Positions 3,028 through 37,706 of a stretch of DNA of 42,783 nt are shown in pieces. Each line of letters opens with the position of its first letter. Positions within the stretch are counted from its first letter, which is position 1. Made by a program: the position numbers and the translations under genes. The notes under the pieces are model-generated. The model made no database searches. It was not told the origin of the DNA and was given only the letters and a program-made list of their open reading frames with translations. The stretch lies in IMG/VR virus record IMGVR_UViG_2630968543_000005; one strand, written 5' to 3'. This DNA comes from a virus. Its lineage: Duplodnaviria; Heunggongvirae; Uroviricota; Caudoviricetes.

Positions 3028-3046
3028 TCGTTGCGTTGGTTATCTG

Positions 3047-3949: not shown

Positions 3950-4011
3950 GTTGGTTTTTCTCCACGGATTTACTGACAACCGAAGCCCTGACTGTTCCCG
4001 CAGTTGGGGCT

Positions 4012-4756: not shown

Positions 4757-4761
4757 CATAA

Positions 4762-5730: not shown

Positions 5731-5886
5731 AATGCAAGCACCTTTATTGTGTTGTATGCTTGCATTATATACACTGTACACACATACAAGCAAGCATAAA
5801 ACTAAAACAAAATGCTTGCATTACAACCGCGCTACTCCAACTACACATTATCATCTGGTATCCTGCTCAAAACTAAGGAGGTTGGT
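5731..5886. promoter_or_regulatory. Divergent intergenic region with four ATGC-N2-GCAT type palindromic repeats
   Basis: ATGCAAGCA 5732-5740, ATGCTTGCAT 5756-5765, AAGCAAGCAT 5788-5797, ATGCTTGCAT 5812-5821; RBS TAAGGAGG at 5874-5881. Confidence 0.4.
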
Positions 5887-6216
5887 GTGCTTGAATGGTT
5901 TCTGTTGGCTGCATTAGTCGTTTCTGGTTTGGTGTATGAGTATCGAATGCACTCTCTAACAAAAAAAATAGGAATTCTAGAAAACGAATATTGTGCTCTC
6001 AAATCCTCACTGGAACGTGAGCAAGGGGACTTAAAAATCTCTCTGTCTAGCATTGAGCGTTCTATAGAGAGCTTAGAGGATAAGGTTGATCGTATAAAGA
6101 ATGAGGATATTCATGATATTAAGGACGACATATCCTTCTTAAAATCTTGGTTGAAAAATGTTGGGAAAATTGCCACATCAACACGAGATAAGCTCAATCC
6201 ATCCATGGATGACTAA
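5887..6216 (+). CDS. Hypothetical membrane-anchored coiled-coil protein (109 aa)
   Basis: In-frame GTG at 5887 five nt after TAAGGAGG; N-terminal hydrophobic helix LEWFLLAALVVSGLVY then heptad-like charged region; stop abuts gp16-like stop back to back (TAATTA). Confidence 0.5.
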   Translation: MLEWFLLAALVVSGLVYEYRMHSLTKKIGILENEYCALKSSLEREQGDLKISLSSIERSIESLEDKVDRIKNEDIHDIKDDISFLKSWLKNVGKIATSTRDKLNPSMDD

Positions 6217-9734: not shown

Positions 9735-9744
9735 TGATTACCCC

Positions 9745-10434
9745 TTAAAACAGTGAACCAAGCAGACCAAGACCAGCACCAATACCAGCCCCCCACGGAG
9801 TTGATAGCTCGAGAGCACTGGCTATGCCACCACCCAAAAGCGCACCGGATGCAGCACCACTAACACCCTGCCGCAATGCTGACGGTCGGTTGGCGTTTGC
9901 CGCTGCAAGAGCCGCGCTTTGCTGTGAAATCTGGCTCATGTTGTTGGCATATGTCTGCCCGGCGTTTGCCTGCCCCTGAAGAGCGCCAAGACCGATATTT
10001 GCCAGGTTGTTGTAATTGTTCATTTGTCCAGATAGCCATTGCTGACCAAGCGTTGGTGCGATTGTTGCTAACTGATTACTGGTTGCGGTGGAACCCAATC
10101 CACCTGTTGCTTCCGCTGCCGCCAGACTCTGATAGCGAGCCTGACCAGCAAGATCTTTGTACTGCTGAGAGTTGTAATACTGGTTAAGTGCCTGACCTTG
10201 CCCTTCCAGAGACGATAAGTTCTCAAGGCTGCCGACATACTTCCCAGCCAGAGGAGTAAACGGCTTCAGGTTGTTCATGATGGTATTGAACTGCTGATTT
10301 TGCAGGTCTGCGGCATACTTCTGAGCTTCTGCGGCATACTTTGCACTTTTATCAGAGCCACCTTTCCCGCCTTTTTCAGGGCAATAAGGTTCCTCGCCGC
10401 GCAGTTTTCTGCCCAGCTTAAATGCATATAACAT
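9745..10434 (-). CDS. Ejection protein (P22 gp7-like)
   Basis: 229 aa, same length as P22 gp7, Gly/Ala-rich hydrophobic C-terminus, position. Confidence 0.6.
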   Translation of the reverse strand: MLYAFKLGRKLRGEEPYCPEKGGKGGSDKSAKYAAEAQKYAADLQNQQFNTIMNNLKPFTPLAGKYVGSLENLSSLEGQGQALNQYYNSQQYKDLAGQARYQSLAAAEATGGLGSTATSNQLATIAPTLGQQWLSGQMNNYNNLANIGLGALQGQANAGQTYANNMSQISQQSAALAAANANRPSALRQGVSGAASGALLGGGIASALELSTPWGAGIGAGLGLLGSLF

Positions 10435-10436
10435 GG

Positions 10437-10892
10437 CTATCTCCCGTGATTCAGGAAGTCGATTAGTTCTTCGCGTGTGGCGCTGTAAAAAGTCACGTCA
10501 TCCACGCCTTTGAAGTATTTCTTGATGGTTCCTACACGCTTAAGGCCAATAATTGCGCAGTACATCTGCCCGTGGCGGAATTTGCGTGCAGCGAACGATG
10601 TGACGCACTGAACGGTGGTGTTAGTCAGAATGTATCGCCAGAACGCCAGCCCGATTTCCTTGCTGAAGCCGCGAATCTCTGGCAGGTACATGGCGTGGCA
10701 ATCGAATGTCAGCGGCTGAATTTCCTGATAGTAAACAATGCCGCCGAACTGCCCGTGCACGTTCACCTCAAAGTAACGGCAATCATGTTTATAGTCGTAT
10801 CCATCACCGTTGTTGCTTCCGGCAATAATGTCAGGGTGATTTCCGACAGCTTCTATCAGGTCGATGTTTCGCGTTGGTTTGAATGTAATCAT
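10437..10892 (-). CDS. Virion-associated protein (P22 gp14-like, positional)
   Basis: 151-aa ORF between tail needle and gp7-like genes. Confidence 0.45.
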   Translation of the reverse strand: MITFKPTRNIDLIEAVGNHPDIIAGSNNGDGYDYKHDCRYFEVNVHGQFGGIVYYQEIQPLTFDCHAMYLPEIRGFSKEIGLAFWRYILTNTTVQCVTSFAARKFRHGQMYCAIIGLKRVGTIKKYFKGVDDVTFYSATREELIDFLNHGR

Positions 10893-11593
10893 CAGTCAAT
10901 CAGCCCATGTAATCTAAGTGCTGTTTCAAGCGCCAGAATACGCTGCCGCGCCTGCTCCAAACCTGTAGCGATAGCTGCGACTTCGGATTGTGTGTACGTA
11001 GTGCCGACCGTGTATGACTGGTTAGCGTTGAATGAGCCAAGAAGAGGTGTACCTGTGGCTGCAGTCCATCCGGTATTTCTTGCTCCAACAACCTGAATTC
11101 CATCAACTGAATATGATGTTTTTACATCCAGTGGTGACGCAAGAGACTGCGATTCTGTTACGGTTTTCGATACGTAATCACTCTTAATGTCAGATACATC
11201 GCTTTCTACGCCATCCAGTCTTTGGTCAACAGTGACCAGATGCGCCTGAATATCGATAACCTCATCCAGCAAGTAATCAACATCGCTACGCAGTACGACT
11301 ATCTTCCCTTCGGCGGTTGTTAACCTGACCTCAAGGAGATTTATCGCTTTTGTGTTTGCGGTGATTCTTGCATCGTGGTCAGCCAGTTCGACATCCTGTT
11401 CATCGTTTTTCACCTGAGCATCGTAAGCGCCCTGACCAGCCTGATTTGCCTTCCCGGCAATTGCGCCGACATCAGCCCCCTGATTAATGACATACAGCAG
11501 GTAAGACTGGCTGAATATATTGCGTGGAAGGATTGATGTATCGAGCCGCGTCGCCTGCACAATAACAGGGGTGTTGAGATTCGAATCAGCCAT
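10892..11593 (-). CDS. Tail needle / portal plug protein (P22 gp26-like)
   Basis: Trimmed to ATG 11593 ([25 protein letters not shown]..., 233 aa); N- and C-termini (..[13 protein letters not shown]) match P22 gp26; ATGA overlap with gp10 stop. Confidence 0.8.
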
Positions 11594-13011
11594 TACTCGA
11601 TCCTTATCTGAGCGCCAGACAGAGTGACAGGTGACTTCGTGATAACGCGCAATTTGAAGCCGACATTTTTCCTGATGCGCCCTACTCGCTTCCACAAAAC
11701 GCGTTTGTCGTAAACGAACGGTTCATTCTGCTCAATCATCTGCTCTTTTCCCCAATTGATGCCGTCAGTGGTTGCAGAGAGGAACAGGCGGTCAGCGTAC
11801 TGAGCGACACCAGTCGATGATTCAACTTCCAGATCAAAACATCTGGCGTTCTCAGCTTTGAAGAGTGGTGTAAACAACAGGTGTTCTTGCTGTAGCCCAT
11901 ACTGGCTGCTGATATCGAACTGCAATTTGCCGATAACCGATTCCAGCTTATCTCCGCACGTTATCTGATTGCCTTCGTAAATGAAGTCGATAGCGCGGTA
12001 CACATCGTCATACAAGCCTGTTTTCAGCACACACCATTGCGGACCATTAGCGCTTGAAGATGCGTCATATACTAGGACGTGGCGCGGAAGGTGGATAATC
12101 AGCAACTCATGAGCATCAAAGCGCAACGATTCCATCACGCCATCAGCCAGTTCATCAGCAGTGTAGGAGCGGAGGATTTTCTCAATGCTCGCGCTGGCGA
12201 TTGGTGACACCTGACCGGAACCGATGATGTACACAGACGGCGCACCCGTTGCCGGATTGCTGATGAACGCATACGAATCAGCAAACGGCGTTTTGCAGTA
12301 GGTTCCGGCAATTCCTTTCTGCACCATCAGTGATGGCTGTGCGACATACAACGCGGCACCAACGGTGGTTGCGCCAGTCAGGGAGAAATATTCAATCGTT
12401 GATGAACCAAAGCATACGATGAAGTCTCGCCATGTTCCGATGCCGATGATGCCGTCAGGCTGCGATTCTGCGCGATATTGTGCGCTGTAGCGGTCAGGAT
12501 GAGATTCGTCTTCAAGGTCAGTGATAAACCATGAATCAGTACCGTCTTTTGACCACGCATAACGCCCACGTAATCGCGTAATGTCGCGGACTGAGCCTAA
12601 CTCATACTGCGTGAATCCGCTGTCTGTAGGCCAGTTTGAGACGGTTTTAACCGTACCATCATAGCGATACTCGACCAGTTGACCATTAACGCCTACAGCC
12701 TGAGATGTTCGACCATGCGCCATTGATACGCGACCACTTCCGGCGACGTCACCGACTTCACTTTCTCCTTTGTACAGCTTACCACCACATACGCGATAAA
12801 CAGCATTCTGCGCCATGTTGTACTCGACGCCCCGCGATACGCCGTTCACATCAGAACGTTTGGCAATGCCCGGGAATGAGCGAAGATATCCGCTGCTGTT
12901 GAGTATTTCTTTGGGCGTAGCCAGCATATTCACTGGCAGATAGTCGATATAGTCGGCGTTTCGAAAGTCTTTGCCGACACCTTTCATAAGCGGAAGTTGC
13001 TGAATCGGCAT
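11593..13011 (-). CDS. Tail accessory factor (P22 gp10-like)
   Basis: 472 aa, same size and position as P22 gp10. Confidence 0.7.
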
Positions 13012-13020
13012 TTATTCACC

Positions 13021-13482
13021 TCACGTACTCGGTTCATCTTTCTCGATGTAAAACCGATTCCACGTAAACGCGCTTTTGTTACCACTACCGCGAGGCATGT
13101 CATTTCGCCGCTCAAGTGGTGGTATTTTGGTTAAAGCGATGCAGATTGTCTGATATGCGCTGTCAGCAGCGGTAAGGAGAGCATCCGACGGCTGAATGAC
13201 GTTATCCATGCACACTTGCACAGCGAGTTTCAAAGCGACGCCATCATTTGCCCATGCAGGGATACCTGAATCATCGTCAGGTAACGGCATGATGCCGTTT
13301 TCTGTATCAGCAAACTGATATCCAAGCTCGATACCTTTCGCCTGCCATGCTGCCATCATGTCTTCGAGGTCATTAATGGCATCTTCAATTGCCTGAGGGT
13401 CGGCATCTGTCAACGTGGCATTGGAATACAGCCCGGCTTTTCGTAAAGCCTTTAGAACGAGATCACCCTTCGTTTTCGCCAT
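13021..13482 (-). CDS. Head completion / tail accessory factor (P22 gp4-like)
   Basis: 153 aa, position after coat and before gp10. Confidence 0.65.
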   Translation of the reverse strand: MAKTKGDLVLKALRKAGLYSNATLTDADPQAIEDAINDLEDMMAAWQAKGIELGYQFADTENGIMPLPDDDSGIPAWANDGVALKLAVQVCMDNVIQPSDALLTAADSAYQTICIALTKIPPLERRNDMPRGSGNKSAFTWNRFYIEKDEPST

Positions 13483-13651
13483 CTTCTTCCGCCTTAGCCA
13501 CTTTTTGCTTCGTTGCGGTTTCTTCAGGAGTTTTTACCCAGCCTTTTTTCAGGTGAGATTTAACTTCTTCGTCATCAACGATGATGTAATCCAGCGAGTG
13601 GGGGCCGCAGGTGATCATCGATCCCGGCTTATAAAGCATGATTTGAGACAT
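13463..13651 (-). CDS. Hypothetical small protein between coat and gp4
   Basis: 62-aa ORF (MSQIMLYKPGSMITCGPHS...) with GGAG RBS immediately after the coat terminator. Confidence 0.35.
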   Translation of the reverse strand: MSQIMLYKPGSMITCGPHSLDYIIVDDEEVKSHLKKGWVKTPEETATKQKVAKAEEDGENEG

Positions 13652-13661
13652 TTCGATCTCC

Positions 13662-13687
13662 AAAAAAAAAGAGGGGCCGAAGCCCCT
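13662..13687 (-). terminator. Rho-independent terminator after coat gene
   Basis: Minus-strand AGGGGC-TTCG-GCCCCT hairpin followed by 9 T. Confidence 0.6.
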
Positions 13688-13691
13688 TGGA

Positions 13692-14951
13692 TTACTGGTT
13701 AGCCAATACCAGGCCGGTGAATTCCGGGACCAGTACGCTTGCGCCAGCCAGCGTGGTGAAGCGAGTCCACGTTTTGCCAGATTTAGCGTCGAATTGGTAA
13801 GCCATGATGATGGTCGCACCCTGCTCGGTCGTTGCGGTCATAACCTGCGGACCCTGGCCGGTAGGGAATGCCAACTTGCCATACATCAGCTCAACAGAAC
13901 CCTCAGCGAAGAAGATGTTGGAAGCCGCAGCCTTCTTGTTGAGGATGTTGATCTTCGCGCTATTCTTCGGATTGGCGGTAACGTTCTGGTAAGGAATAGA
14001 CGCCTTATCCGCGTTGTCTGGTGGCAGAATTTTCGGGCTGATGGTAACGGTAGTGCCTTTTACATCCAGGACGCGGAATACCTGCGGCTGACCTGTATCC
14101 ACCTTCTTGATCATGTGGACACTGTTAACGCCTTCGATAGTGAATGCATCACCGACAGCCAGTACGTTCTCAGCGGATACGGTGATATCACCCTGGCGGT
14201 TATCGGTAGGCGCTCCGTTGGAATCCATCGCGGTAACTTTATGTGCTACTGCGCCGCCGAGAGTTACAGCGGTAGCTGAACCAGCCTTCATTGCGCCAGC
14301 ATAATCAACGCGGAAACTGTCGAAGGATGCCACAGGTGGAATCTGAGCTTTCTCATAGGCTGTCAGAGTTGCACCGACCGCATATGCGCGAGAGCCAAGC
14401 TCCTTAGCCAGGTCTTTGTAGTTGAACGGGTTGTAGAACGCCTTGCGCTGACCACCCTGAGGCACACCAATGGACAGCATCATTGCATCAACGTCAGCCG
14501 ATGCGTTCCAGAGTTCTTCGCCGAGAGTGCTACCGGTGGACGCCGATTTAATGGTGACCACGTTGGTGGAGCGAGCGACCACCTCATCGACGATCATGTT
14601 ATCAACCCACGCCGCCAACTGGCGACCCGCCGCCTTGCCAGCCTGCTCTTTGTGCCACGGATCGCGCATTTCTTTTGCGTCCAGTTCGTAGATGACGTTC
14701 TCTGGCTCGCGGAAGCGAGCAGGCACCTGACGCTGAACGAGTGAGTTTGCAGTGGCCGAAGTCAGATCAAGTCCGCTCACGGTTTTCAGGTGGTAGCCCT
14801 GAGGGCGATAAACAACGTCGCCAGCGCGCTGCATTTCAATGTCGCCCGGTCGGAACTTGCTGCACTCGCGGGAAACGACATTGGACGCCTCAAAACTATC
14901 AATGACGCTCTCAAAGAGGATTTCGAGGTCTTTTGTTAACTGGTTAGACAT
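13692..14951 (-). CDS. Major capsid (coat) protein
   Basis: 419-aa ORF downstream of scaffold, size close to P22 coat (430 aa), followed by strong terminator. Confidence 0.7.
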   Translation of the reverse strand: MSNQLTKDLEILFESVIDSFEASNVVSRECSKFRPGDIEMQRAGDVVYRPQGYHLKTVSGLDLTSATANSLVQRQVPARFREPENVIYELDAKEMRDPWHKEQAGKAAGRQLAAWVDNMIVDEVVARSTNVVTIKSASTGSTLGEELWNASADVDAMMLSIGVPQGGQRKAFYNPFNYKDLAKELGSRAYAVGATLTAYEKAQIPPVASFDSFRVDYAGAMKAGSATAVTLGGAVAHKVTAMDSNGAPTDNRQGDITVSAENVLAVGDAFTIEGVNSVHMIKKVDTGQPQVFRVLDVKGTTVTISPKILPPDNADKASIPYQNVTANPKNSAKINILNKKAAASNIFFAEGSVELMYGKLAFPTGQGPQVMTATTEQGATIIMAYQFDAKSGKTWTRFTTLAGASVLVPEFTGLVLANQ

Positions 14952-14971
14952 AGGTATTTAGCTCCGATGGA

Positions 14972-15868
14972 TTATTTTTTAGCTTTGTTCTTCGCCGCCC
15001 GGTATTCGGTGTAATCACCGGTGTCGCGCGCTTTTTCGAGAAGTTTGTCGAGGTTATTGATTACTGCGCCGTTGCTCCCCTTAACTGTCGGGGTTGTGGC
15101 TGCCGTGGTTTTTGCTTTTGGCATGATTCTGGCCTTCGATTCGATACGTTCCAGCAGACGACCAATTGCTACGGGGTTGGTAGCTTCTGCCAGTTGCTTG
15201 CGCAGTTCAGCGTTGCGACCGAGTGCCAGAACAACGATTTCCGGCTTCTCTGACTCAAGAAGGATCATGTCCTGAATGTGAACAGGAACATCTTCGCGTA
15301 CAGCCTGCTCTGCATCCTGGTAACCAGCCACTTTCAGTGCTTTTACTCTATGCATGTAATTGGCTGCTTTCTGCTGAAGCGTTGCGGTACGCGCCTCTTC
15401 CTCTCGTTTCCGCTCTCGTACTTGCTCCTGGTATTTGCCGTTGTCCTCCGCCCACTTAGCCATGCGTTGCTGGTAGATTTCTTCATCGAAACCGATGTCC
15501 TCATCATCCAGTTTTGGCATTCGCGGTGGTTGAGTGATTACCGGCTGCTGCTCGACGGGTTTCTGGGACTGACGCATCAGCTCTTTCAGCTCGCGGTCTT
15601 TCTCTTTAATCGTCTTGCGCAGGTGTTTTACCAGTCCATGCTCAGCGCCATCTTCGCTGGTTGGCGAATCCAGCTTTTCGTCACCAAAGTAGAATTCCTG
15701 TTCTGATTCGTCGTCATCAGTTTCAGTAGCTTCCTCTGCATCATTGCCGGAGGACTCACTGCCATCTTCTGTTTCGACTTCTTCAGCCAGTTCGACATCA
15801 TCAGGAATCTGCTCTGATGTATCGGTTTCTATTTCAACTTCTGGTGTGTTTTCTGCCATCTGGTCCAT
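14972..15868 (-). CDS. Scaffolding protein
   Basis: 298-aa acidic, charged, helix-rich ORF between portal and coat; N-terminal acidic tract. Confidence 0.65.
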   Translation of the reverse strand: MDQMAENTPEVEIETDTSEQIPDDVELAEEVETEDGSESSGNDAEEATETDDDESEQEFYFGDEKLDSPTSEDGAEHGLVKHLRKTIKEKDRELKELMRQSQKPVEQQPVITQPPRMPKLDDEDIGFDEEIYQQRMAKWAEDNGKYQEQVRERKREEEARTATLQQKAANYMHRVKALKVAGYQDAEQAVREDVPVHIQDMILLESEKPEIVVLALGRNAELRKQLAEATNPVAIGRLLERIESKARIMPKAKTTAATTPTVKGSNGAVINNLDKLLEKARDTGDYTEYRAAKNKAKK

Positions 15869-15958
15869 TTGTTACCCCTGTTTACTCGATGTTCAGCCCA
15901 TCGGAAGGCAATAGGGTGCCAGGCCTCATAAAGACAGCCATTGCACGTTATTGGTTAA

Positions 15959-18175
15959 TTACTGCTGTGATTGTTGCTGGGTTGATTTTTGCAGGATGCT
16001 GCTGATGTCCATTCGTTGTGCATGGCCCTGTGCCTGACTTTTCAGGACAAGCTCTGCATCAGCACGGGCGTTATCTCCTTGCTGTTGCTGGAACTGTCCG
16101 AGCAGTTTCAGAGCCTCGCGGATATCAGATTTCTGCTGGCTATCGGCAGATGCGAGGATTTTCACAACATTTGCCGCAGCAACCTGAGCATCCGTCTGTG
16201 CCTGGAATGCTTTAACCTGAATAGCTGCCTGTTCGTTCTGCGCTTTCTGCAATTCAGCCTGACCAGCAAGAAGTTGACCTTGCGCTGCAACCATAGCCGG
16301 ATCTGGCTGACTGGCCTGTTGTTGTTTCGCCTGTTCAACCATCTGCTGTTCTTCAGGCGTTCTCGGCTTGATAACGCCAGACAGAAGCAACTGATTGCGG
16401 TTGTATTCTTTAAGGTCGTCCATCCCTTCGCCGTCCATATTGTCGAGAATCATCGACGATACAAGGTCGTGCTTCTGCGTTCCTGGTGGGATAAGTGCCA
16501 GCATGGAAAGTAACGACTTAACCGTTGCATCACGACGAGTAGCGAACGACTGACCGACATCGACAGTCACTTCATAGTTGCCCTGCGAAAGGTCATTAAG
16601 CGCGATAACCTGCCCTGTCTGACGGTCAACCACTTCACCAGTCATCAGCGCCACGTCATCGCTGCCGTCCTCATTAACGATACGCATCGGCGTATCACTG
16701 CCATAGACCTCACGCGCCATAGAAAGCCACACAACGCCAGCGCGACGCATGGATTTAGCCATGTTGTCCATGTAGATATAGGACTGCGTGTCCATCCGGT
16801 TAAAGATGCTATCAACGGTATCGGTGGCGACGTTGCTCGGCATGTTCTCAAGCTGCGACGCACCTGTAATTTGCTGAATAGCAGTTCCGGTGTACTGCAA
16901 TAGCCCGGCAAGAGCAGGAGGCATTTGTGTTGTAGGTGTATAACTGCTGACCTGAGCCTGCGCAGTAATATCTCCGTTTTTGTTTTTCAGACTGACCATC
17001 GGCAGGAACGCCGGGCGCTTTTTGTTGCGCTCCGCCCAATGAGTGGCAAGAGGACCAGGAATCATGTCAACATCAACTACAGGAATGCCATCGCCGCCAG
17101 CCTGAGTAGCGTTATCTGCAATCATGGAAACCATCAGGTTCTCAAGACGCTGTGCATCCATCGCTTTTGCTGCGTGGCCTTCGATTCGCTCCTGATTATC
17201 AACAAATGAACGACGCCCATATACCGGGATGAGAGGAATATGTTCGCCCGGAATACGCTTCGGTTCTTCCAGCCATTCAGCGCCAGACAGAAGACCGCAA
17301 TAAACTCGGCGTTTCTTCACTGTCCGCTCACCAATCAGTTCGAATGCGCCATCGGTCAGCTCGTCGACAATATCTTTGATTTGATCTTCATCATAGATTG
17401 CCGTTTCTCCGCTAACAGGGTTACGCCATGCTGTGAGCTTCACCTTCTCTACGCGAACTTCGTAGTAGCGTCCAACATAGATGGCGTCAGGCGTTGACCA
17501 GTCATACTGAGTACCAGTGTCATCACGAGAAAGGCTTGCCGCGATGGAATCAGGGTATTCAGCCTCGAACGCTTTAGGCGTCATGGAGAACATTTCCATA
17601 GCCCACATAGCATCAGAGCGGTCATATTGCTTGCTGTCCTGATCGAAGAAAACGCATGTCGCTGGGTCGTAAACAGGAAGAAGGCTGATGCGTCGCTGCT
17701 CGTTACTTGGGTCCATTTCATCTTCGTAATCGGCACACATGCGGAAACAACCGAATCCGCCCGTTACAGCATCATCAAATGCGTTATCACACGCTTCGCC
17801 ACCGGATGTTTCCTGATAGTCAGCGCGGAATTTGCCGTTCATCTTTTCGGCTAACGCTTCCGATGCCTTGTCATCCTTCGGCCTGAATTTAACGCTGATG
17901 CGATTCTGTCGATACTCGCCAATGATGCGATCACATTCACGGGCAATCTTATTCAGTTCAAAGCGCGGGTAATGCTCAAACCTGCCTTCATCAAATGAGT
18001 AACCAGCGTTTGTGCTGCCTTCCCACTGTGCGCCGGACACCCGGACGAAACGTTGAGCCTCAATAATCTGCTCTCGCATATCCTGCGTTGCTGACCAGGC
18101 ATTATCAAAGTTGCACAGCACCTTGCGATGCCAGTCAGTCATCTTTCTATCATCAGCCATCATCCAACTCCGCAA
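15959..18175 (-). CDS. Portal protein (P22 gp1-like)
   Basis: 738 aa; Gln/Ala-rich C-terminal helical region (PEEQQMVEQAKQQQ..AMVAAQGQLLAGQAELQKAQ) resembles P22 portal barrel; 16-nt overlap with terL. Confidence 0.85.
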   Translation of the reverse strand: MRSWMMADDRKMTDWHRKVLCNFDNAWSATQDMREQIIEAQRFVRVSGAQWEGSTNAGYSFDEGRFEHYPRFELNKIARECDRIIGEYRQNRISVKFRPKDDKASEALAEKMNGKFRADYQETSGGEACDNAFDDAVTGGFGCFRMCADYEDEMDPSNEQRRISLLPVYDPATCVFFDQDSKQYDRSDAMWAMEMFSMTPKAFEAEYPDSIAASLSRDDTGTQYDWSTPDAIYVGRYYEVRVEKVKLTAWRNPVSGETAIYDEDQIKDIVDELTDGAFELIGERTVKKRRVYCGLLSGAEWLEEPKRIPGEHIPLIPVYGRRSFVDNQERIEGHAAKAMDAQRLENLMVSMIADNATQAGGDGIPVVDVDMIPGPLATHWAERNKKRPAFLPMVSLKNKNGDITAQAQVSSYTPTTQMPPALAGLLQYTGTAIQQITGASQLENMPSNVATDTVDSIFNRMDTQSYIYMDNMAKSMRRAGVVWLSMAREVYGSDTPMRIVNEDGSDDVALMTGEVVDRQTGQVIALNDLSQGNYEVTVDVGQSFATRRDATVKSLLSMLALIPPGTQKHDLVSSMILDNMDGEGMDDLKEYNRNQLLLSGVIKPRTPEEQQMVEQAKQQQASQPDPAMVAAQGQLLAGQAELQKAQNEQAAIQVKAFQAQTDAQVAAANVVKILASADSQQKSDIREALKLLGQFQQQQGDNARADAELVLKSQAQGHAQRMDISSILQKSTQQQSQQ

Positions 18176-31453: not shown

Positions 31454-31560
31454 GATTCCCTCAGATTGAGATTTTTAAACCAGAAATCGACAAACGAAAT
31501 ACTTAACCAGCCGTGGTTATAACCAGCGACCAGTAGCGATTTGATTTTTGATTTCATGGT

Positions 31561-32421
31561 TCACCTGTCGAAAAACACGTAGCCAGTTTTCGATACGGTG
31601 ATTGCGGATGATGGTTTGGATTGTGGTTGAATAGTTTCTGGCTTCTCGTCGTTCCAGCGCTGACCGTTCAGGTAGCTCGATGGTAACAACCTGTCGAATC
31701 CGAACTGCTTACCATTCCTGCATGCGATGTCTTCTGCCAGCATCGTGGCAAACTCGCTTGCCGTACCCCTGGTAGTTTTACGCCATTCCCTGAACTGTGT
31801 TCTGAATGCCGAAGCTGCGTTTTTCTTCCCGGCTTTCCGCATGCCTGCACACCAGAATATTTCCTCGAATGCCTTGTCGGTTTCTTCGTGACGGTCAGGT
31901 GATTTTTCACACTCCGTCCGAACACTTTCGGACATAGTGTTTTTATTATTTCTTTTTTCTTTTGTAATAGTTTCTTTTGTGTGTCCCTGTTTTGGTGACA
32001 GCGCTGTCACCGTTTTGGTGACACTTTTTGTCACCAATGCAGTGACATTATCACCAGAGTAGTGACACCCTTCGATTTGCCATTCCTCGATGTTCTTGTT
32101 AGGCCCGATTTGCTGGCCTTCGCGAAGGATAACCTTCATCGCGATAAGCTCATTCTTGGCCTTGTTTACCTTCTGTCTTGGCAGCCTGGTAATTTGAGCT
32201 AACTGACTATCAGAGATGCGATCCATCTTTTTACCGTAGCCGTATGTTTTACGGCATATGGCGTGGGCAACCTTGCTCTGATTTTTCGTTAAATCTGCGC
32301 CGATAAGCTCTTCATACAGGGCATTTGCAAGACGGGTATAACCATCTTCAACTTCTGCCACACGACGCTCCACAGGCCGTTGTGAAGGCCTTAAATGTGT
32401 TACGGTTGCAATATTACTCAT
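31561..32421 (-). CDS. O: Replication initiator, lambda O-like N-terminal domain
   Basis: 286 aa; ..[65 protein letters not shown] resembles lambda O N-terminal domain; C-terminal part differs. Confidence 0.8.
31941..32070. repeat. Replication origin candidate: AT-rich tract plus GGTGACA/TGTCACC iterons inside O gene
   Basis: AT-rich 31941-31980; GGTGACAGCGCTGTCACC (31994-32011), GGTGACACTTTTTGTCACC (32017-32035), GTGACATTATCAC (32042-32054), GTGACA (32062-32067) at ~23-bp spacing. Confidence 0.55.
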
Positions 32422-32560
32422 GACCTTTCTCCTTCTGCATCAGCTTCACTTTTTCCAACTCAGCCCGGAATCGACCAGGCTGCTTGAAGCTGGACAGGAA
32501 GCGATCACGTAGTATGTGTTTGTGAATTTTGTCCTGGTAAGGACTGAGTTGTTTTGTCAT
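32414..32560 (-). CDS. Hypothetical small protein between cII and O
   Basis: 48-aa ORF with AGGAG RBS, stop overlaps O start. Confidence 0.3.
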
Positions 32561-32592
32561 AATTACTCCTGTGGATTGATCCAGTAATGACC

Positions 32593-32889
32593 TCAGAATT
32601 CCATCTGGATTTGTTCAGAACGCTCGGTTGCCGCCGGGCGTTTTTTATTGGTGAGTCCATCAAGCGCATACTTAAAAGCCCTGCTAATCGGACTGATGTC
32701 TGATGCCATTCCGAAAGCACACAAGACCGAAGCAATAAATCTCCAGTCCGTTCTGCTTATCTTCGATTCATGACAGCCAATCATCTTTGCCAGACCGCGC
32801 TGGGTAAGCGTTGACAGGTTGATGAGTAAATCTGTTTCTGCGCGATCAACGTCGCGCTGTGATAGTTTGCTGTAACTTGTTTGTTCCAT
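32593..32889 (-). CDS. cII: CII transcriptional activator
   Basis: 98 aa; C-terminus ..[20 protein letters not shown] as in lambda CII; HTH ..[14 protein letters not shown].. Confidence 0.85.
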
Positions 32890-32923
32890 TTCTTACTATT
32901 TCCATAGGTAAATAATCACTAAT

Positions 32924-32941
32924 ACTCATCTTTCGATGAGT
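32924..32941 (-). terminator. tR1-like hairpin between nutR and cII (weak)
   Basis: ACTCATC-N4-GATGAGT hairpin, only a weak U tract. Confidence 0.3.
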
Positions 32942-32953
32942 GATTAATTAGTT

Positions 32954-32990
32954 ACCGCGTTGTCGGCGGTGCAGATTGATAAAGAGCTGA
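32954..32990 (-). promoter_or_regulatory. nutR (boxA + boxB)
   Basis: Minus strand boxA-like GCTCTTTAT (32981-32989) and boxB hairpin ACCGCCGACAACGCGGT (32954-32970), P22-type, just after cro stop. Confidence 0.65.
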
Positions 32991-32998
32991 TCCGCTTA

Positions 32999-33214
32999 TT
33001 AAGCGGCTTTGTGTTCCGGCGGGAACACGTCATCAAGACTGACTTTTGCGCCTAACTTGTTTAGGCACGCAACAAGAGCACGGCATGTTTTAAGGTCTGG
33101 GAAGCGACGACCAGATTCCCAATGTCCGATAGCTCCCTGTGTGCATCCAACCGCCTTAGCAAGTGTTGTTTGAGAGATATTCAGTGACTCTCGATATTTT
33201 CGTAGGTTGCTCAT
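32999..33214 (-). CDS. cro: Cro-like repressor
   Basis: ORF 32999-33385 trimmed to ATG 33214 (GGAGGG RBS), 71 aa; HTH ..ISQTTLAKAVGCTQGAIGHWESGRR.. resembles cI HTH in same region. Confidence 0.75.
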   Translation of the reverse strand: MSNLRKYRESLNISQTTLAKAVGCTQGAIGHWESGRRFPDLKTCRALVACLNKLGAKVSLDDVFPPEHKAA

Positions 33215-33325
33215 ATGCCCTCCATAGTAACCATGAAACAATAATACGATATGTACTTTTGGAATGCAAACAAAAAATACATCTTGTGCATGGATGGTTT
33301 TAGTACAGAGCGTAATAATAAGGAT
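33215..33325. promoter_or_regulatory. OR/PR/PRM region between cro and cI
   Basis: Operator-like AAAAGTACATATCGTATTAT (minus strand of 33241-33260) nearly identical to a site in PL; second AGTACA at 33302-33307; PR candidate -35 TTTGCA / -10 TATTAT on minus strand. Confidence 0.5.
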
Positions 33326-33985
33326 ATGAAGATGAAATGGTATGAACTGGCTAGATCCAGAATGAAAGAACTCGGCATAACTCAAGAGAAGTTAGCTGAA
33401 GAGCTTGGTATGACGCAGGGTGGAATTGGTCACTGGTTGCGCGGATCTCGTCATCCATCTCTTGACGAGATTGGTGTGGTGTTTAAATACCTTGGTATTG
33501 ATAACGTCTCATTCAACCACGACGGTACATTTTCACCTGTTGGCGAATACTCATCTGCCCCCGTTAAAAAACAATATGAGTACCCTGTTTTTTCTCATGT
33601 TCAGGCCGGGATGTTCTCGCCTGAGCTTAGAACCTTTACCAAAGGTGATGCGGAGAGATGGGTCAGCACAACCAAAAAAGCCAGTGATTGTGCGTTTTGG
33701 CTTGAAGTTGAAGGTAATTCCATGACCGCACCAACAGGTTCCAAGCCAAGCTTTCCTGACGGGATGTTAATTCTCGTTGACCCTGAGCAGGCTGTTGAGC
33801 CAGGTGATTTCTGCATAGCCAGACTTGGTGGTGACGAGTTTACCTTCAAGAAACTGATCAGGGATAGCGGTCAGGTGTTCCTACAACCACTAAACCCGCA
33901 ATATCCAATGATCCCATGCAATGATAGCTGTTCCGTAGTAGGGAAAGTTATCGCCAGCCAGTGGCCTGAAGAGACATTTAGTTAA
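33326..33985 (+). CDS. cI: CI repressor (HTH N-terminal domain, S24 LexA-like C-terminal domain near-identical to lambda CI)
   Basis: ORF 33251-33985 trimmed to ATG 33326 (alternative 33332); C-terminal ..[93 protein letters not shown] matches lambda CI. Confidence 0.85.
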
Positions 33986-34015
33986 CAGCCTCACCACTCT
34001 AAAACACACAACAAT

Positions 34016-34045
34016 AACCCGACCTTAGCGTCGGGTTTTCTTTTT
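34016..34045 (+). terminator. Rho-independent terminator after cI
   Basis: AACCCGAC-CTTAGC-GTCGGGTT followed by TTCTTTTT. Confidence 0.55.
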
Positions 34046-34110
34046 CCAAAATATAAATCAATAAAATACAAAGTGTTATAAAAAACTAACCACATTTAGA
34101 ACATTTTGTA

Positions 34111-34139
34111 TTGACTCAATAAAGTACACATCGTACTAT
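34111..34139 (+). promoter_or_regulatory. PL promoter with overlapping operator
   Basis: -35 TTGACT (34111-34116), 17-nt spacer, -10 TACTAT (34134-34139); operator AAAGTACACATCGTACTATT (34121-34140) shared with OR. Confidence 0.55.
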
Positions 34140-34185
34140 TTAGCCATCAGCAGGAAGCTGGAAGCCAAACGGAACAGATTGGCAG

Positions 34186-34219
34186 GCTCTTTAACTTCGA
34201 TGGGGCGCTGACAAAGCGC
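34186..34219 (+). promoter_or_regulatory. nutL (boxA + boxB)
   Basis: boxA-like GCTCTTTAA (34186-34194) and boxB hairpin GCGCTGACAAAGCGC (34205-34219), P22-type. Confidence 0.7.
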
Positions 34220-34338
34220 AAACAGATACCAAACGAGATGGGTTTGGCGGTGATGTGAATTGCAGCTGCAACGACAGCAACCAGAAGATCAGCACCTGGC
34301 GCATCACCACCAAAGCCATTTCACATGAGGAAAATATC

Positions 34339-34647
34339 ATGACGGTAATCGTGTACGGGAAATCAACATTTGCAGGAAATGCCAAAACTCGCCGTCATGA
34401 GCGGCGCAGAAAGCTGGCTATCGAGCGTGATGCTATATGCAACATCATCGATTCGATCTTCGGCACAGACAGTGAGGAACCTGTTCAGGAAGCCCCGAGA
34501 AAACGTTTAATCCTTTCTGAAAAAGCAATATCACTCGGCAACATTCGTAACCAAAATACCGACGAATGCAGTGGAAGTATTTGCCTGCCAAACGTAGCCA
34601 TTTACGCGGCAGGCTACCGGAAATCAAAACAACTGACAGCCAGGTAA
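34339..34647 (+). CDS. N: Antiterminator N (P22 gene 24 type)
   Basis: ORF 34255-34647 trimmed to ATG 34339; arginine-rich motif GNAKTRRHERRRKLAIERD matches P22 N. Confidence 0.85.
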   Translation: MTVIVYGKSTFAGNAKTRRHERRRKLAIERDAICNIIDSIFGTDSEEPVQEAPRKRLILSEKAISLGNIRNQNTDECSGSICLPNVAIYAAGYRKSKQLTAR

Positions 34648-34650
34648 GTG

Positions 34651-34875
34651 ATGAATCAGACATACATTCCATCATGCTTGAGAAATCTGCCAAAGCAGAA
34701 AGCAAAGCCCCGCAAGCAAGCCATAAAGGACGCTAAGGCAGAGGTTATTGATCAAGCAATACAATTGCTCAGGGAGGAGTTAAGAAGTGGCAAGCTCGAA
34801 GGAATGATGATGCCTTATCAGCGCGGATATCTATCGGCGATTAGTAAGTTGGAAGTATTGAAGAGTGAATTATGA
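34651..34875 (+). CDS. Hypothetical basic protein directly downstream of N
   Basis: 74 aa, ATG 4 nt after N stop; Lys-rich N-terminus, predicted helical. Confidence 0.4.
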   Translation: MNQTYIPSCLRNLPKQKAKPRKQAIKDAKAEVIDQAIQLLREELRSGKLEGMMMPYQRGYLSAISKLEVLKSEL

Positions 34876-34937
34876 ACTATCTGGAATTTCCGGATGGTTC
34901 ATTGTTTTGGCAGCAAGCCACTTATTTGAGGTGAGAT

Positions 34938-35408
34938 ATGACAAAATCATGGAGCGTACCTTTTCCTGAATCAGAAACTGAACATGATGGAATGCCTGTT
35001 TTCTGGAGATTCCAGGCGACAGTTGAAGAAGATGGAATCAAAATATTCGCACTTCAATATATAGCTTTTCATCAGACAGAGCATTATGCATGGTTGGTTC
35101 CTGCGCATTGGATTGTTAATTTTAAACCAGCACCAAATCAGTGGTTACAGGAATGGAAACAAAAGAGAAATAGATATGCAATTAAGAAAGTAGCAAAAAA
35201 TGCAGAAAGATCTTTTGCATTCCCAACGAAGAAACTTGCCATTGAAAGTTTATTGCGCCGAAAGAAATACCATTTAATGAGAATCAAACAAGATTTGGCT
35301 GTTGTATCAACTCTTGTTGATGGGATGAAGAATATTGATACATCAACACCAGATATTGAATATAACTTTGGGCACAACCAAGAAACAGAAAATTGGGTAT
35401 TTTATTAG
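34938..35408 (+). CDS. Hypothetical 156-aa protein (accessory gene at sieB-equivalent position)
   Basis: GAGGTGAG RBS; no TM segment; no recognisable motif. Confidence 0.5.
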   Translation: MTKSWSVPFPESETEHDGMPVFWRFQATVEEDGIKIFALQYIAFHQTEHYAWLVPAHWIVNFKPAPNQWLQEWKQKRNRYAIKKVAKNAERSFAFPTKKLAIESLLRRKKYHLMRIKQDLAVVSTLVDGMKNIDTSTPDIEYNFGHNQETENWVFY

Positions 35409-35422
35409 TACGAGTAAGCACT

Positions 35423-35450
35423 GTGTATTCATTCCAACGAGTGAATACAC
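35423..35450 (+). other. Perfect 9-bp inverted repeat
   Basis: GTGTATTCA-N10-TGAATACAC with no U tract. Confidence 0.35.
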
Positions 35451-35512
35451 GGAGCAATGTCGCTCGTAACTAAACAGGAGCCGACTTGTTCTGATTATTG
35501 GAAATCTTCTTT

Positions 35513-35537
35513 GCCCTCCAGTGTGAGGGCTTTTTTA
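35513..35537 (+). terminator. Rho-independent terminator (tL1-like) ending the N-proximal cassette
   Basis: GCCCTC-CAGTGT-GAGGGC followed by 6 T. Confidence 0.55.
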
Positions 35538-35602
35538 TATGCATACCAATAACGCTTAACTAGAGGCGTTTTCGTTATGCAATCAAACAGAAGGAGCATC
35601 CT

Positions 35603-35773
35603 ATGCAACAGTTCGCTATTGCAGGGGCGGCATCGGTTCGCCCTTTCAACCCGATTTTATCGGTACAGCATTCACGAAAAAATATTTTAACCGGAGCAGA
35701 CTTTAAACAACCAAGAATGAAAAGTTTGCTCGAAAAGCTTTGGGATATTTTGAAACAACAAGGCCGCCCATGA
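35603..35773 (+). CDS. cIII: CIII-like protease inhibitor
   Basis: 56 aa MQQFAIAGAASVRPF...SLLEKLWDILKQQGRP; resembles lambda CIII (MQYAIAG...WKRLIDIL); AAGGAG RBS; below ORF track cutoff. Confidence 0.65.
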   Translation: MQQFAIAGAASVRPFNPILSVQHSRKNILTGADFKQPRMKSLLEKLWDILKQQGRP

Positions 35774-35928
35774 GTTTTACAGATAACTGGTCAGACGAAG
35801 AATTCATTCGTCAGATGAAAGAATTAATCGGTAACGAAGGAGATATTCATGTCACTTGCAACCACAGTGAAGGAGAGCAAGTTACAGAGGCGCATGTACA
35901 CGCAGAAAGCTCTCTGGTATCGCCATAA
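35770..35928 (+). CDS. Hypothetical small acidic protein at the kil position
   Basis: 52 aa, ATG overlaps cIII stop (ATGA). Confidence 0.3.
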   Translation: MSFTDNWSDEEFIRQMKELIGNEGDIHVTCNHSEGEQVTEAHVHAESSLVSP

Positions 35929-36027
35929 TGGTGACCGCGAAGGAATGCGGGTATGCCTTAATTTGTCCAGAGTCGAAGTATTAAATCAGCGTTATTTCCT
36001 TGGTCCATGTCCATTCTGAGGTGAATT

Positions 36028-36735
36028 ATGGATTTAAATAAATTCGATGAGCCATTCAGCCCTGAAGATATTGAATGGCGAATACAGCAAAGCGGTAAAA
36101 CACGCGATGGCAAGGTGCGGGCTATGGTGCTGGCTTATGTCACGAACCGGGCAATCATGAAACGCCTGGACGATGTTTGCGGCAAAGCAGGATGGCGCAA
36201 TGAATACCGCGATATTCCCAACAACGGCGGCGTTGAATGCGGCATATCAATAAAGATTGATTCCGAATGGGTAACCAAATGGGATGCTGCTGAAAACACG
36301 CAGGTAGAAGCCGTCAAAGGTGGTCGTTCCGGTGCAATGAAGCGTGCTGCCGTTCAGTGGGGAATCGGTCGGTATCTGTATAACCTTGAGGGAGGTTTCG
36401 CACAAACATCTCTCGATAAAAAGCAGGGGTGGCACAGGGCAAAACTGAAGGATGGAACAGGATTTTACTGGCTCCCTCCATCGCTGCCGGGATGGGCAAT
36501 CCCAGCATCAGATAACAAACCATCACCAGAAAATACCAACCAGAAATCTCCATCGGTTGACTGCGAACAAATCCTGAAAGACTTCAGCGATTATGCAGCG
36601 ACAGAAACTGACAAGAAAAAACTCATCGAGCGTTATCAGCGTGACTGGCAATTAATGGCTGGCAACGAGGAGGCGCAGGCTAAATGCGTTCAGGTAATGA
36701 ACATCAGAGTTAACGAACTAAAACAGGCGGCATAA
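36028..36735 (+). CDS. Single-strand annealing recombinase with P22 Erf-type C-terminal domain
   Basis: 235 aa; C-terminal ..ILKDFSDYAATETDKKKLIERYQRDWQLMAGNEEAQAKCVQVMNIRVNELKQAA matches P22 Erf C-terminus as recalled; N-terminal two-thirds differs; GAGGTGA RBS. Confidence 0.65.
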   Translation: MDLNKFDEPFSPEDIEWRIQQSGKTRDGKVRAMVLAYVTNRAIMKRLDDVCGKAGWRNEYRDIPNNGGVECGISIKIDSEWVTKWDAAENTQVEAVKGGRSGAMKRAAVQWGIGRYLYNLEGGFAQTSLDKKQGWHRAKLKDGTGFYWLPPSLPGWAIPASDNKPSPENTNQKSPSVDCEQILKDFSDYAATETDKKKLIERYQRDWQLMAGNEEAQAKCVQVMNIRVNELKQAA

Positions 36736-37203
36736 ATGTCTCACTTGGACGGAATTATTAAAAGATTCGAGTCCAGCTACAAAGTTAATGAAACAACAGG
36801 ATGCTGGGAGTCTACCTATTCAAAAAACAAAGGAGGATACACAAAATTTGTAGCCTTTGGCGTAACAATGCTTTCTCATCGGGTTGCTTTTGAGCTTTAT
36901 CACTCCCCCATTCCATCTGGGAAGATGGTTTGCCACAAATGCGATAACCCATGCTGCGTTAATCCTGAACATCTCTTTTTAGGTAGCGCGCAAGAAAACA
37001 TGGACGACAAGATAGCAAAAGGAAGGCATCGTGGAGCCAAGAAAGGTCATGCTCATCATGGTGCAAAATTAACAGAGTGGCAGGTTATAGAAATTAGGAA
37101 AAGACTCTCTGAAAAAGAGAGTCAGTACAAGATAGCAAAAGACATGGGTGTATCTCAATCAATTATAAGCAACATAAAAACTGGCAAGAGGTGGAGCAAA
37201 TGA
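36736..37203 (+). CDS. HNH endonuclease
   Basis: 155 aa; [30 protein letters not shown] motif; inserted between recombinase and ssb. Confidence 0.7.
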
Positions 37204-37706
37204 GTTCTCGCGGGATAAATAAGGTGATTATCCTTGGTCGGGTAGGACAAGACCCGGAAGTTCGATACTCACCATCAGGAACAGCGTTCGCTAACCTGAC
37301 AATAGCAACGTCAGAACAATGGCGAGATAAAAATACTGGCGAGCAAAAGGAATTGACTGAATGGCATCGTGTTGCTGTATCCGGGAAACTGGCTGAGGTC
37401 GTGGGGCAGTATGTGAAAAAAGGTGATCAGATTTATTTCGAGGGAATGCTGAGAACCAGAAAGTGGAAAGACCAGTCAGGGCAAGACCGTTACACAACCG
37501 AGGTTCATGTCGGAATTAATGGCGTGATGCAAATGCTTGGCGGCATTGGCGACAGCAAACAACAAGCAGCCAGCAGGCAATCACAGAAGCCACAGCAGCA
37601 ATCATCACCAGCACAACACAACGAACCTCCGATGGATTTTGACGACGATATACCCTTTGCGCCAGTAACTCTCCCCTTCCCTCGTCACGCTATTCACGCA
37701 ATTTAA
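37200..37706 (+). CDS. ssb: Single-stranded DNA-binding protein
   Basis: [41 protein letters not shown].. OB-fold and acidic C-terminal tail [11 protein letters not shown] 37200 overlaps HNH stop. Confidence 0.85.

Follow-up and report, generated by a model that had tools for sequence, protein, structure and literature searches.

A P22-like Escherichia coli prophage combines a VT2-Sakai-type immunity core with lambda- and P22-type modules

Results

Layout of the control region

Positions 32593-34647 of the window, the whole 42,783-nucleotide stretch of DNA analysed here, form the lysis/lysogeny control region (immC) of a P22-like, CUS-3-related E. coli prophage. The region encodes CII, Cro, CI and N (Table 1) and has the layout of a lambdoid switch: cI and cro diverge from a tripartite OR (33242-33317) lying over PR and PRM, and a tripartite OL (34064-34138) overlaps PL upstream of N. 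The prophage is intact, and the region is inverted relative to the lambda map. A 64-aa ORF at 34191-34385 (-) was treated as spurious; it is antisense to nutL and the N leader, and its counterpart in E. coli N39 carries the annotation hypothetical. An earlier, sequence-only reading had described the region as a mosaic in which the C-terminal parts of CI and CII are lambda-like, N and the nut sites are of the P22 type, and the helix-turn-helix (HTH) and operators are separate. That description is right, and the sequence features on which it drew were all found in place when checked against reference records.

Table 1. Genes, sites and transcription signals of the control region, in window coordinates.
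Feature	Position	Strand	Description
oop antisense RNA region (putative)	32553-32655	+	lambda-type; overlaps cII 3' end
cII	32593-32889	-	98 aa, transcriptional activator of lysogeny; Pfam Phage_CII 7.8e-35
CII binding site and predicted PRE	32867-32899	+	TTGCTGTAACTTGT 32867-32880; PRE -10 TACTAT, directed towards cI
nutR	32954-32988	-	boxA GCTCTTTA 32980-32987; P22-type boxB ACCGCCGACAACGCGGT 32954-32970
cro	32999-33214	-	71 aa; Pfam HTH_3 4e-12
PR	33241-33269	-	-35 TTGCAT 33264-33269, 17-bp spacer, -10 TATTAT 33241-33246
OR1	33242-33258	.	TAATACGATATGTACTT; core of PR 19-mer; matrix rank 2
OR2	33275-33291	.	AAATACATCTTGTGCAT; matrix rank 7
PRM			-35 TGGATG 33291-33296, -10 AATAAT 33314-33319; overlapped by OR3
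OR3	33301-33317	.	TAGTACAGAGCGTAATA; matrix rank 5; 16/17 identical to Sakai operator
cI	33332-33985	+	217 aa; Pfam HTH_3 and Peptidase_S24
Intrinsic terminator after cI	34016-34046	+	terminator scan; -12 kcal/mol, z = -4.0
OL3	34064-34080	.	AAATACAAAGTGTTATA; matrix rank 4
OL2	34097-34113	.	TAGAACATTTTGTATTG; overlaps PL -35; matrix rank 3
PL	34111-34139	+	-35 TTGACT, 17-bp spacer, -10 TACTAT; consensus scan
OL1	34122-34138	.	AAGTACACATCGTACTA; core of PL 19-mer; matrix rank 1
nutL	34186-34219	+	boxA GCTCTTTA 34186-34193; P22-type boxB GCGCTGACAAAGCGC 34205-34219
N antiterminator	34339-34647	+	102 aa; Pfam N_peptide 1.6e-39

The repressor and Cro

CI has a two-part architecture, with a VT2-Sakai-type HTH N-terminal domain (residues 1-81) and a lambda-type S24 C-terminal domain (residues 82-217). 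The C-terminal domain is identical to that of lambda CI at 133 of 136 residues, as its lambda-like appearance had suggested; at the DNA level, positions 33575-33979 match lambda cI with 94.3% identity. The best solved-structure match of the protein is lambda repressor (3bdn, E=2e-96). Features of self-cleavage are kept and align with lambda residues (Ala92-Gly93, Ser130 and Lys173), as are the helix-2 acidic residues that align to lambda Glu34 and Asp38 (a 10-residue stretch compared with SQESVADKMG). The HTH region, in contrast, is identical to lambda CI at only 12 of 32 residues, and the identity of CI to P22 C2 is about 38% (37.7%). VT2-Sakai CI shares 209 of 217 residues with the window protein, including 78 of 81 in the N-terminal domain; three of the eight differences (D45S, E46D and V59I) lie in this domain and none in the HTH. 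CI of phage vB_EcoP-720R6 is identical throughout (217/217), with only 6 synonymous differences between the genes.

The start of cI is ambiguous. ATG 33332 is preceded by a Shine-Dalgarno sequence, and starting at ATG 33326 would yield a leaderless PRM mRNA. The RefSeq start at 33290, which gives a 231-aa CI, was rejected: it lies inside OR2, upstream of the predicted PRM start.

Cro is identical to VT2-Sakai Cro (71/71 aa; the 4 nucleotide differences are synonymous) and to RefSeq WP_000067727, and a comparison with P22 Cro returned nothing beyond a 20-residue local match. CI and Cro both match Pfam HTH_3, and the similarity proposed for their HTH motifs holds: a 13-residue motif of CI corresponds to GCTQGAIGHWESG in Cro, with 22 of 62 residues identical. 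Substitutions are all synonymous in cro and mostly synonymous in cI, a bias that argues for function under selection. It also speaks against decay of a cryptic prophage, in which the region would be a remnant without a working switch; we consider this reading very improbable. In favor of decay, the window is a prophage-sized segment, and boxA of nutR starts with A, where C stands in P22 and in the N39 and OkiPb01715 prophages of E. coli. However, the four genes are all intact, with sequences the same or almost the same as in the isolated plaque-forming phages 720R6, Louie and phi458, and the window carries a full P22-like set of structural, replication, recombination and integrase genes. An ant/arc/mnt region is also present in the prophage.

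Operators and promoters

A near-identical 19-bp site had been noticed at PL and PR. The site exists, as AAAGTACACATCGTACTAT at 34121-34139 (+) and AAAGTACATATCGTATTAT at 33241-33259 (-), and it overlaps the -10 hexamers of PL (34134-34139) and PR as described; by our own arithmetic, the expectation for the degenerate 19-mer to match twice by chance in 2 x 42.8 kb is about 1e-6. Rather than one operator per side, however, there is a 3+3 set, in which the two copies are OR1 and OL1. We scanned the window with a matrix built solely from the six operators annotated in the VT2-Sakai record (AP000422), where they are labelled 'putative'. The six sites form clusters exactly at PR/PRM and PL, and rank 1-5 and 7 among all 17-mer positions in the window. 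The matrix replaced a 15-mer operator consensus, which at 3 mismatches found 5 sites against 1.98 expected, a number not above chance.

Each operator is collinear with an annotated VT2-Sakai operator and differs from it at 1-2 bases, mostly central bases 8-11. There are two mismatches in OR2, both central, two in OL3 and one, central, in OL1; the non-central differences are single outer bases in OR1, OR3 and OL3. The centers of OR1 and OR2 are 33 bp apart, compared with 32 bp in VT2-Sakai and about 24 bp in lambda. Neither the lambda nor the P22 immunity region contains a sequence that matches one of the six operators with 3 or fewer mismatches. Operators of the lambda type (TATCACCGCCGGTGATA) and the lambda CI N-terminal domain, which would define imm-lambda, are absent from the region, as are the C2-type repressor and operators of the P22 c2/cro immC.

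A generic sigma-70 promoter scan showed no enrichment (4 found versus 3.9 expected in shuffles), and our promoter calls therefore rest on position, homology and collinearity with annotated records. PR is collinear with the 'major rightward promoter' of AP000422, PRM with its 'maintenance promoter for cI' and PL with its 'major leftward promoter'. The consensus scan reads PR as TTTGCA/18 bp/TATTAT; the TTGCAT/17 bp form in Table 1 is a reading by eye.

cII, oop and terminators

The C-terminus of CII had been described as lambda-like. This is true of the last 20 residues, which are identical to lambda CII; the rest of the protein is of the VT2-Sakai/HK022 type. Overall, 87 of 98 residues are identical to VT2-Sakai CII, and 39 are identical to lambda CII across 88 aligned columns. 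The lambda-like end can be attributed to a putative oop antisense RNA gene of the lambda type, which lies on the other strand. This predicted oop region is 96.1% identical to lambda over 103 bp, terminator included, and its intrinsic terminator, picked up by the terminator scan, comprises a hairpin at 32618-32643 (-16.7 kcal/mol, z = -3.6) followed by a T run. An Rfam scan of 31500-36000 at E<=1 gave no match to oop or to nutL or nutR; its sole match, to Mu-gpT-DE, was sub-threshold. The CII site has the same sequence as the 'CII protein binding site' of AP000422, and the region around it is collinear with the promoter annotated there. The terminator 3' of cI is 89% identical over 36 bp to lambda sequence just downstream of rexB.

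N and the nut sites

The assignment of N and its sites to the P22 type is well founded. About 40 of the first 42 residues of N match P22 gp24, with the whole arginine-rich motif GNAKTRRHERRRKLAIER identical, and boxA lies ahead of boxB on both the PL and the PR side. The two boxB hairpins find exact matches inside the annotated nutL and nutR of P22 (NC_002371), with folding energies of -8.5 kcal/mol (z = -3.1) for nutL and -6.7 kcal/mol for nutR; nutR is 94.4% identical to P22 over 36 bp. Across its full length, N is 68% identical to gp24 (69/102). Its last 21 aa are closer to VT2-Sakai N, which is annotated as 933W/H-19B-like, and the 3' end of the gene (34581-34643) is 87% identical to VT2-Sakai N.

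Relatives and the immunity type

Judged by sequence, the CI/Cro/operator set is of the VT2-Sakai (Sp5) immunity type; GenBank AP000422 carries annotations for the operators and promoters of this type. Nil2, 2851, 1717, the Stx1 phage AP005153 and PA-series Stx2a phages have the same type. It has already been treated in the literature by Fattah et al. (2000), as cited in PMC4587872 and PMC10742460. The likeness to VT2-Sakai includes three sites each at OR and OL with the same positions and half-sites, the layout of PR, PRM, PL and PRE, the CII site, and the body of cII. VT2-Sakai differs in having two extra ORFs between cI and OL, such that OR1 and OL1 are about 2.3 kb apart versus 880 bp here. 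It also has its own N, nutL and nutR, of a third type that is neither P22 nor lambda, and a diverged oop/cII tail. It is a Stx-converting phage of the Sepvirinae (Traversvirus), not a P22-like prophage.

The closest isolated phages are vB_EcoP-720R6 (ON470605), which like the window belongs to Lederbergvirus, and Louie, Dewey, 683R2 and phi458. OR1-3 and OL2 of 720R6 and Louie are identical to those of the window, and OL1 and OL3 are one base off each; these two phages differ in having lambda-type N, nutL, nutR and cII, where the window has N/nut of the P22 type and cII of the Sakai type. Two E. coli prophages, in N39 (NZ_CM165893) and OkiPb01715 (NZ_AP042695), have CI, Cro and all six operators identical to the window. 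They have the whole 2-kb arrangement in common with it at 97.5-98.5% identity, including P22-type N and boxB. N, nutL and nutR are likewise P22-type in phiKp_30, which shares the immunity core. The two prophages differ from the window at 5-6 aa in N and at least one in cII, and the neighboring replication genes differ in N39.

These relatives bear directly on the claim, implied in the sequence-only reading, of a new immunity specificity that matches no described lambdoid type. We give this claim almost no credence. The operators and HTH are indeed unlike those of lambda and P22. Relative to VT2-Sakai, moreover, the N-terminal domain has its three substitutions, each operator has 1-2 base changes and the OR1-OR2 spacer is 1 bp longer. 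Yet VT2-Sakai has the identical HTH and a 100% identical Cro, the operator differences are mostly central, CI finds an exact match in the isolated phage 720R6, and CI, Cro and all six operators find exact matches in N39 and OkiPb01715. Nor is the core rare: the CI N-terminal domain occurs at 95% identity or more in 63 phage records, with the next relatives at about 54%, and 775 of 5426 complete E. coli genomes carry the cro/OR/cI N-terminal core. Novelty is thus refuted by the exact matches, of CI in a known phage and of CI, Cro and the six operators in known prophages.

Discussion

We conclude that the region is probably a lambda-style bistable switch built from known modules of VT2-Sakai, lambda and P22, and put the probability of this reading at about 0.9. 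The same patchwork is present in other sequenced E. coli genomes, so the arrangement is ordinary and already known, and exchange of N/nut sets on one immunity core is normal lambdoid mosaicism. Lambda is matched in the CI C-terminal domain, oop, the terminator found downstream of rexB and the logic of the switch, but not in the DNA-binding domain, the operators, Cro, N or the nut sites, and the window has no rexAB. P22 gene 24 and its sites are matched in the arginine-rich motif, both boxB hairpins and the boxA core GCTCTTTA; the c2, cro and operators of P22 are unrelated in specificity to those of the window.

What we observe directly is homology, sites that match exactly, and where the sites lie with respect to consensus promoters; binding order, cooperativity, activation and induction are inferred. 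CI dimers with the VT2-Sakai-type HTH would bind 17-bp pseudo-palindromes (approximately wARTACA-N4-GTAyTw), three each at OR and OL. PR is covered by OR1 and OR2, and PL by OL1 and OL2; bound CI would shut off N, cro and the replication genes. At PRM, OR2 adjoins the -35 and OR3 lies over the promoter, an arrangement in which CI is expected to activate its own synthesis and, at high level, to limit it. Because its C-terminal domain is that of lambda, CI should dimerize, show pairwise and long-range cooperativity, and undergo RecA-stimulated self-cleavage at Ala-Gly, which would make the prophage SOS-inducible. Lambda-like pairwise cooperativity is an assumption here, given that the OR1-OR2 spacing is unlike that of lambda. 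Cro, with its CI-like HTH, presumably acts on the same operators and favors lytic growth. When PL and PR fire, P22-type N would bind the P22-type boxB hairpins of nutL and nutR and allow RNA polymerase to read through terminators. CII would activate PRE at TTGC-N6-TTGT, within the 5' end of cII, and lambda-type oop antisense RNA may oppose cII.

How far this immunity is distinct from that of lambda is less certain. The HTH and operators differ in sequence from those of both lambda and P22, but a functional difference from lambda is uncertain in view of a reported cross-immunity between VT2-Sakai and lambda. The core could be cross-immune with lambda, either by weak mutual recognition of operators or by mixed oligomers formed via the common C-terminal domain, although we consider this rather unlikely. 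The report is that of Fattah et al. (2000) as stated in PMC10742460, and is therefore second-hand. The same source gives apparent KD values for lambda CI of 3.7-6.4 uM on the six Sakai operators, against 0.21-3.07 uM on lambda's own. The near-identity of the C-terminal domain to lambda's is consistent with cross-immunity, as are the bases A2, A5 and C6 / G12, T13 and T16, which, read from the sequences, the 17-mers share with the lambda consensus. However, micromolar EMSA affinities are near the non-specific range, and the portion of PMC10742460 that presents them mentions no non-operator control. The sparse identity of the HTH regions and the absence of any lambda site within 3 mismatches of the operators also weigh against cross-immunity.

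A heteroimmune sub-specificity may have split from the VT2-Sakai allele, or CI, by way of its lambda-identical C-terminal domain, may oligomerize with the repressor of lambda or of co-resident Sakai-type Stx prophages; both proposals seem improbable to us. A sub-specificity would be marked by the three N-terminal-domain substitutions, the altered operator centers and the 1-bp longer OR1-OR2 spacer. The window-type allele also occurs, at 95% identity or more, in 720R6, in phi458 and in some 200 genomes of E. coli. Were mixed oligomers to form, a harmless P22-like prophage could alter the induction of Stx phages or block Stx conversion.

As a discovery, the switch described here, assembled from known modules, is of small value, but it offers a clean example of module exchange among lambdoid phages. 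A single immunity core is combined with three N/nutL/nutR sets whose members always switch together, and the joints between modules fall at conserved sequences, the PL transcript start and the oop terminator. The Stx2 phage of E. coli O157:H7 Sakai has an identical Cro and the same repressor recognition motif, and strains with this prophage are therefore predicted to show superinfection immunity towards the common Stx phages of the VT2-Sakai class.

The immunity core belongs to a known and common type

The segment 32593-34647 is a lambdoid early-control region whose orientation is inverted relative to the lambda map. We checked claims about it against the records of lambda (NC_001416), P22 (NC_002371) and VT2-Sakai (AP000422), an Stx2 phage with annotated operators and promoters, and mapped its mosaic joints by blastn against these three references (see table).

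Features of the early-control region, the second immunity region and the recombination module, with mosaic blocks and their blastn references
Feature	Coordinates	Strand	Evidence
cII	32593-32889	-	Pfam Phage_CII
nutR	32954-32988	-	
cro	32999-33214	-	Pfam HTH_3
Control region with OR1-3			117 bp, between cro and cI
OR1	33242-33258		Sakai-matrix match
OR2	33275-33291		Sakai-matrix match
OR3	33301-33317		Sakai-matrix match
cI	33332-33985	+	Pfam HTH_3, Peptidase_S24
Intrinsic terminator after cI	34016-34046		
OL and PL	34064-34139		
OL3	34064-34080		Sakai-matrix match
OL2	34097-34113		Sakai-matrix match
OL1	34122-34138		Sakai-matrix match
nutL	34186-34219		
N	34339-34647	+	Pfam N_peptide
Block, overall	32411-33985		VT2-Sakai, ~90%
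Block, oop	32553-32655	+	lambda, 96%
Block, nutR	32952-32987		P22, 94%
Block, CI C-terminal domain	33575-33979		lambda, 94%
Block, downstream of rexB	34008-34043		lambda, 89%
Block, OL/PL	34048-34194		VT2-Sakai, 82%
Block, nutL and 5' part of N	34139-34464		P22, 74%
Block, 3' end of N	34581-34643		VT2-Sakai, 87%
Antirepressor Ant	3047-3952	-	phrog_245, 1.5e-93
Small ORF without assigned function	4012-4233	-	
Arc-like ribbon-helix-helix protein	4230-4382	-	
Mnt/Arc-like protein, divergent	4492-4746	+	
HNH endonuclease ORF	36736-37203	+	phrog_59, 1.8e-33

The sequence-only reading had described a hybrid immunity region and suggested a specificity distinct from both lambda and P22. Its observation is confirmed; its interpretation is partly supported. 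The E. coli prophages of N39 (NZ_CM165893) and OkiPb01715 (NZ_AP042695) share CI (WP_014532159), Cro (WP_000067727) and the whole set of six operators with the window, with no differences, and also carry P22-type nutL, nutR and N; CI is identical over 217/217 residues in Escherichia phage vB_EcoP-720R6 (ON470605). VT2-Sakai has the same Cro (71/71 residues, with four synonymous differences) and shares 209 of 217 CI residues; of the eight differences, three fall within the N-terminal domain, and the helix-turn-helix (HTH) is unchanged. In a megablast of cro, OR and the N-terminal part of cI against a phage collection, 64 records matched, each with at least 90% identity: Louie, 683R2, 720R6, Dewey and phi458 at 98.4-98.8%, and VT2-Sakai, Nil2, 2851, 1717, Stx1 phage AP005153 and PA-series Stx2a phages at ~94%. 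The CI N-terminal domain defines a discrete group by tblastn (63 phage records at ≥95%); its next relatives, Salmonella phages epsilon34, g341c and L, stand at ~54%. Because of these exact and near-exact matches, the core is of a known type rather than a new one. It is also common: 775 of 5426 complete E. coli genomes carry it at ≥90%, and 49 contain 80% or more of the 2-kb region, the best-scoring 15 of them at 97.5-98.5% identity.

Repressor, operators and promoters

The lambda-like C-terminal domain of CI is borne out (residues 82-217 match lambda CI at 133/136 positions), with the Ala-Gly cleavage site and Ser/Lys catalytic dyad kept. CI and Cro have a common HTH motif, TQG(G/A)IGHW. The VT2-Sakai record annotates six 17-bp operators, three each at OR and OL, and a symmetrised weight matrix built from these alone was run over all 42.8 kb. 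The six window sites ranked 1-5 and 7, and the five best scores exceeded the mean best score from 200 shuffles. The proposed shared 19-bp site does occur at 34121-34139 (+) and 33241-33259 (-), overlapping the PL and PR -10 hexamers, but it represents only two of the six operators, OL1 and OR1, each extended by one base per side. The operator consensus is approximately wARTACA-N4-GTAyTw; at OR the centres of neighbouring sites lie 33 and 26 bp apart, at OL 25 and 33 bp. OR1 and OR2 cover PR, OL1 and OL2 cover PL, OR2 adjoins the PRM -35 (TGGATG) and OR3 overlaps PRM, a layout shared with the annotated Sakai promoters. OR1 and OL1 are 880 bp apart here, whereas the distance in Sakai is ~2.3 kb.

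The PRM -10 (AATAAT, 33314-33319) predicts a transcript start near ATG 33326; with initiation there, the cI mRNA, like that of lambda, would be leaderless. A Shine-Dalgarno sequence precedes ATG 33332, and the Sakai record uses the 217-aa start. The RefSeq entry for the identical protein (231 aa, WP_014532159) begins at ATG 33290, a codon that falls within OR2 and ahead of the transcript start predicted for PRM, and is probably over-extended.

Antitermination, cII and oop

The P22 arginine-rich motif of N is complete (~40 of the first 42 residues as in P22 gp24), and both boxB elements fold as hairpins and exactly match those inside the annotated P22 nut sites, as had been proposed. N is itself mosaic, with a P22-type N-terminal RNA-binding part and a 3' end (34581-34647) closer to VT2-Sakai; its last 21 residues (CLPNVAIYAAGYRKSKQLTAR) agree at 20/21 positions with Sakai N and ~16/21 with P22 gp24. 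At position 32988 in nutR boxA, A precedes GCTCTTTA in the window, whereas P22, N39 and OkiPb01715 have C, giving canonical CGCTCTTTA.

Among the core-sharing phages compared, N, nutL and nutR are always exchanged as one set: lambda-type in 720R6 and Louie, a third type in VT2-Sakai (annotated 933W/H-19B-like), and P22-type in N39, OkiPb01715 and Klebsiella phage phiKp_30, as in the window. Such joint exchange on one core is standard lambdoid modular exchange. phiKp_30 (LC768498, 917-1378) has the same cro/OR, P22-type nutL and N, with a deletion that starts at about codon 24 of cI, stops shortly before OL1 and takes OL3 and most of OL2 with it; the phage has the appearance of a clear-plaque or virulent derivative that arose by deletion from the same hybrid region.

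The lambda likeness claimed for the CII C-terminus holds for the last 20 residues, which are identical; the rest is Sakai-type (87/98 identities with Sakai CII, against 39 over 88 aligned columns with lambda). The likeness is confined to these residues because the lambda block there consists of the gene for the oop antisense RNA and its terminator, at which the mosaic joint lies. oop is flanked by Sakai-type cII on one side and by P22/Sakai-type orf48 (DUF2740, 32414-32560) on the other.

A predicted lambda-style switch within a probably bipartite immunity system

By homology, the region would act as a lambda-style switch. CI would repress PR and PL and regulate PRM, its C-terminal domain mediating oligomerisation and RecA-dependent self-cleavage; Cro presumably acts on the same operators. 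N would pair with its cognate P22 boxB hairpins, CII would act at a site identical to that annotated in Sakai (TTGCTGTAACTTGT, 32867-32880), and oop would counter cII.

At the sequence level, the core is distinct from lambda; functional distinctness is not assured. PMC4587872 treats Sakai OL1-3 and OR1-3 with reference to Fattah et al., 2000, and PMC10742460 credits Fattah et al. with observing VT2-Sakai/lambda cross-immunity, and gives 3.7-6.4 uM for lambda CI binding to Sakai operators versus 0.21-3.07 uM to its own.

The window holds a complete prophage, P22-like (Lederbergvirus) and related to CUS-3, and the window ends coincide exactly with the tailspike and integrase stops. The 981-aa tailspike (1-2946, -) and virion module (1-18146) have counterparts in CUS-3, a K1-capsule phage of E. 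coli RS218, with 93% identity and 72% coverage of the first 20 kb; the corresponding CUS-3 region carries the annotation endosialidase tailspike. N39, which is among the two best whole-region matches, was isolated from CSF. The HNH ORF, flanked by an Erf-like annealing protein (36028-36735) and SSB (37191-37706), appears to be a mobile element inserted into the recombination module. At 3047-4746 there is a second immunity region of P22 style (immI). Immunity of this prophage is probably bipartite, as in P22, and since Ant, Arc-like and Mnt-like genes are present, its behaviour in vivo would depend on both regions.
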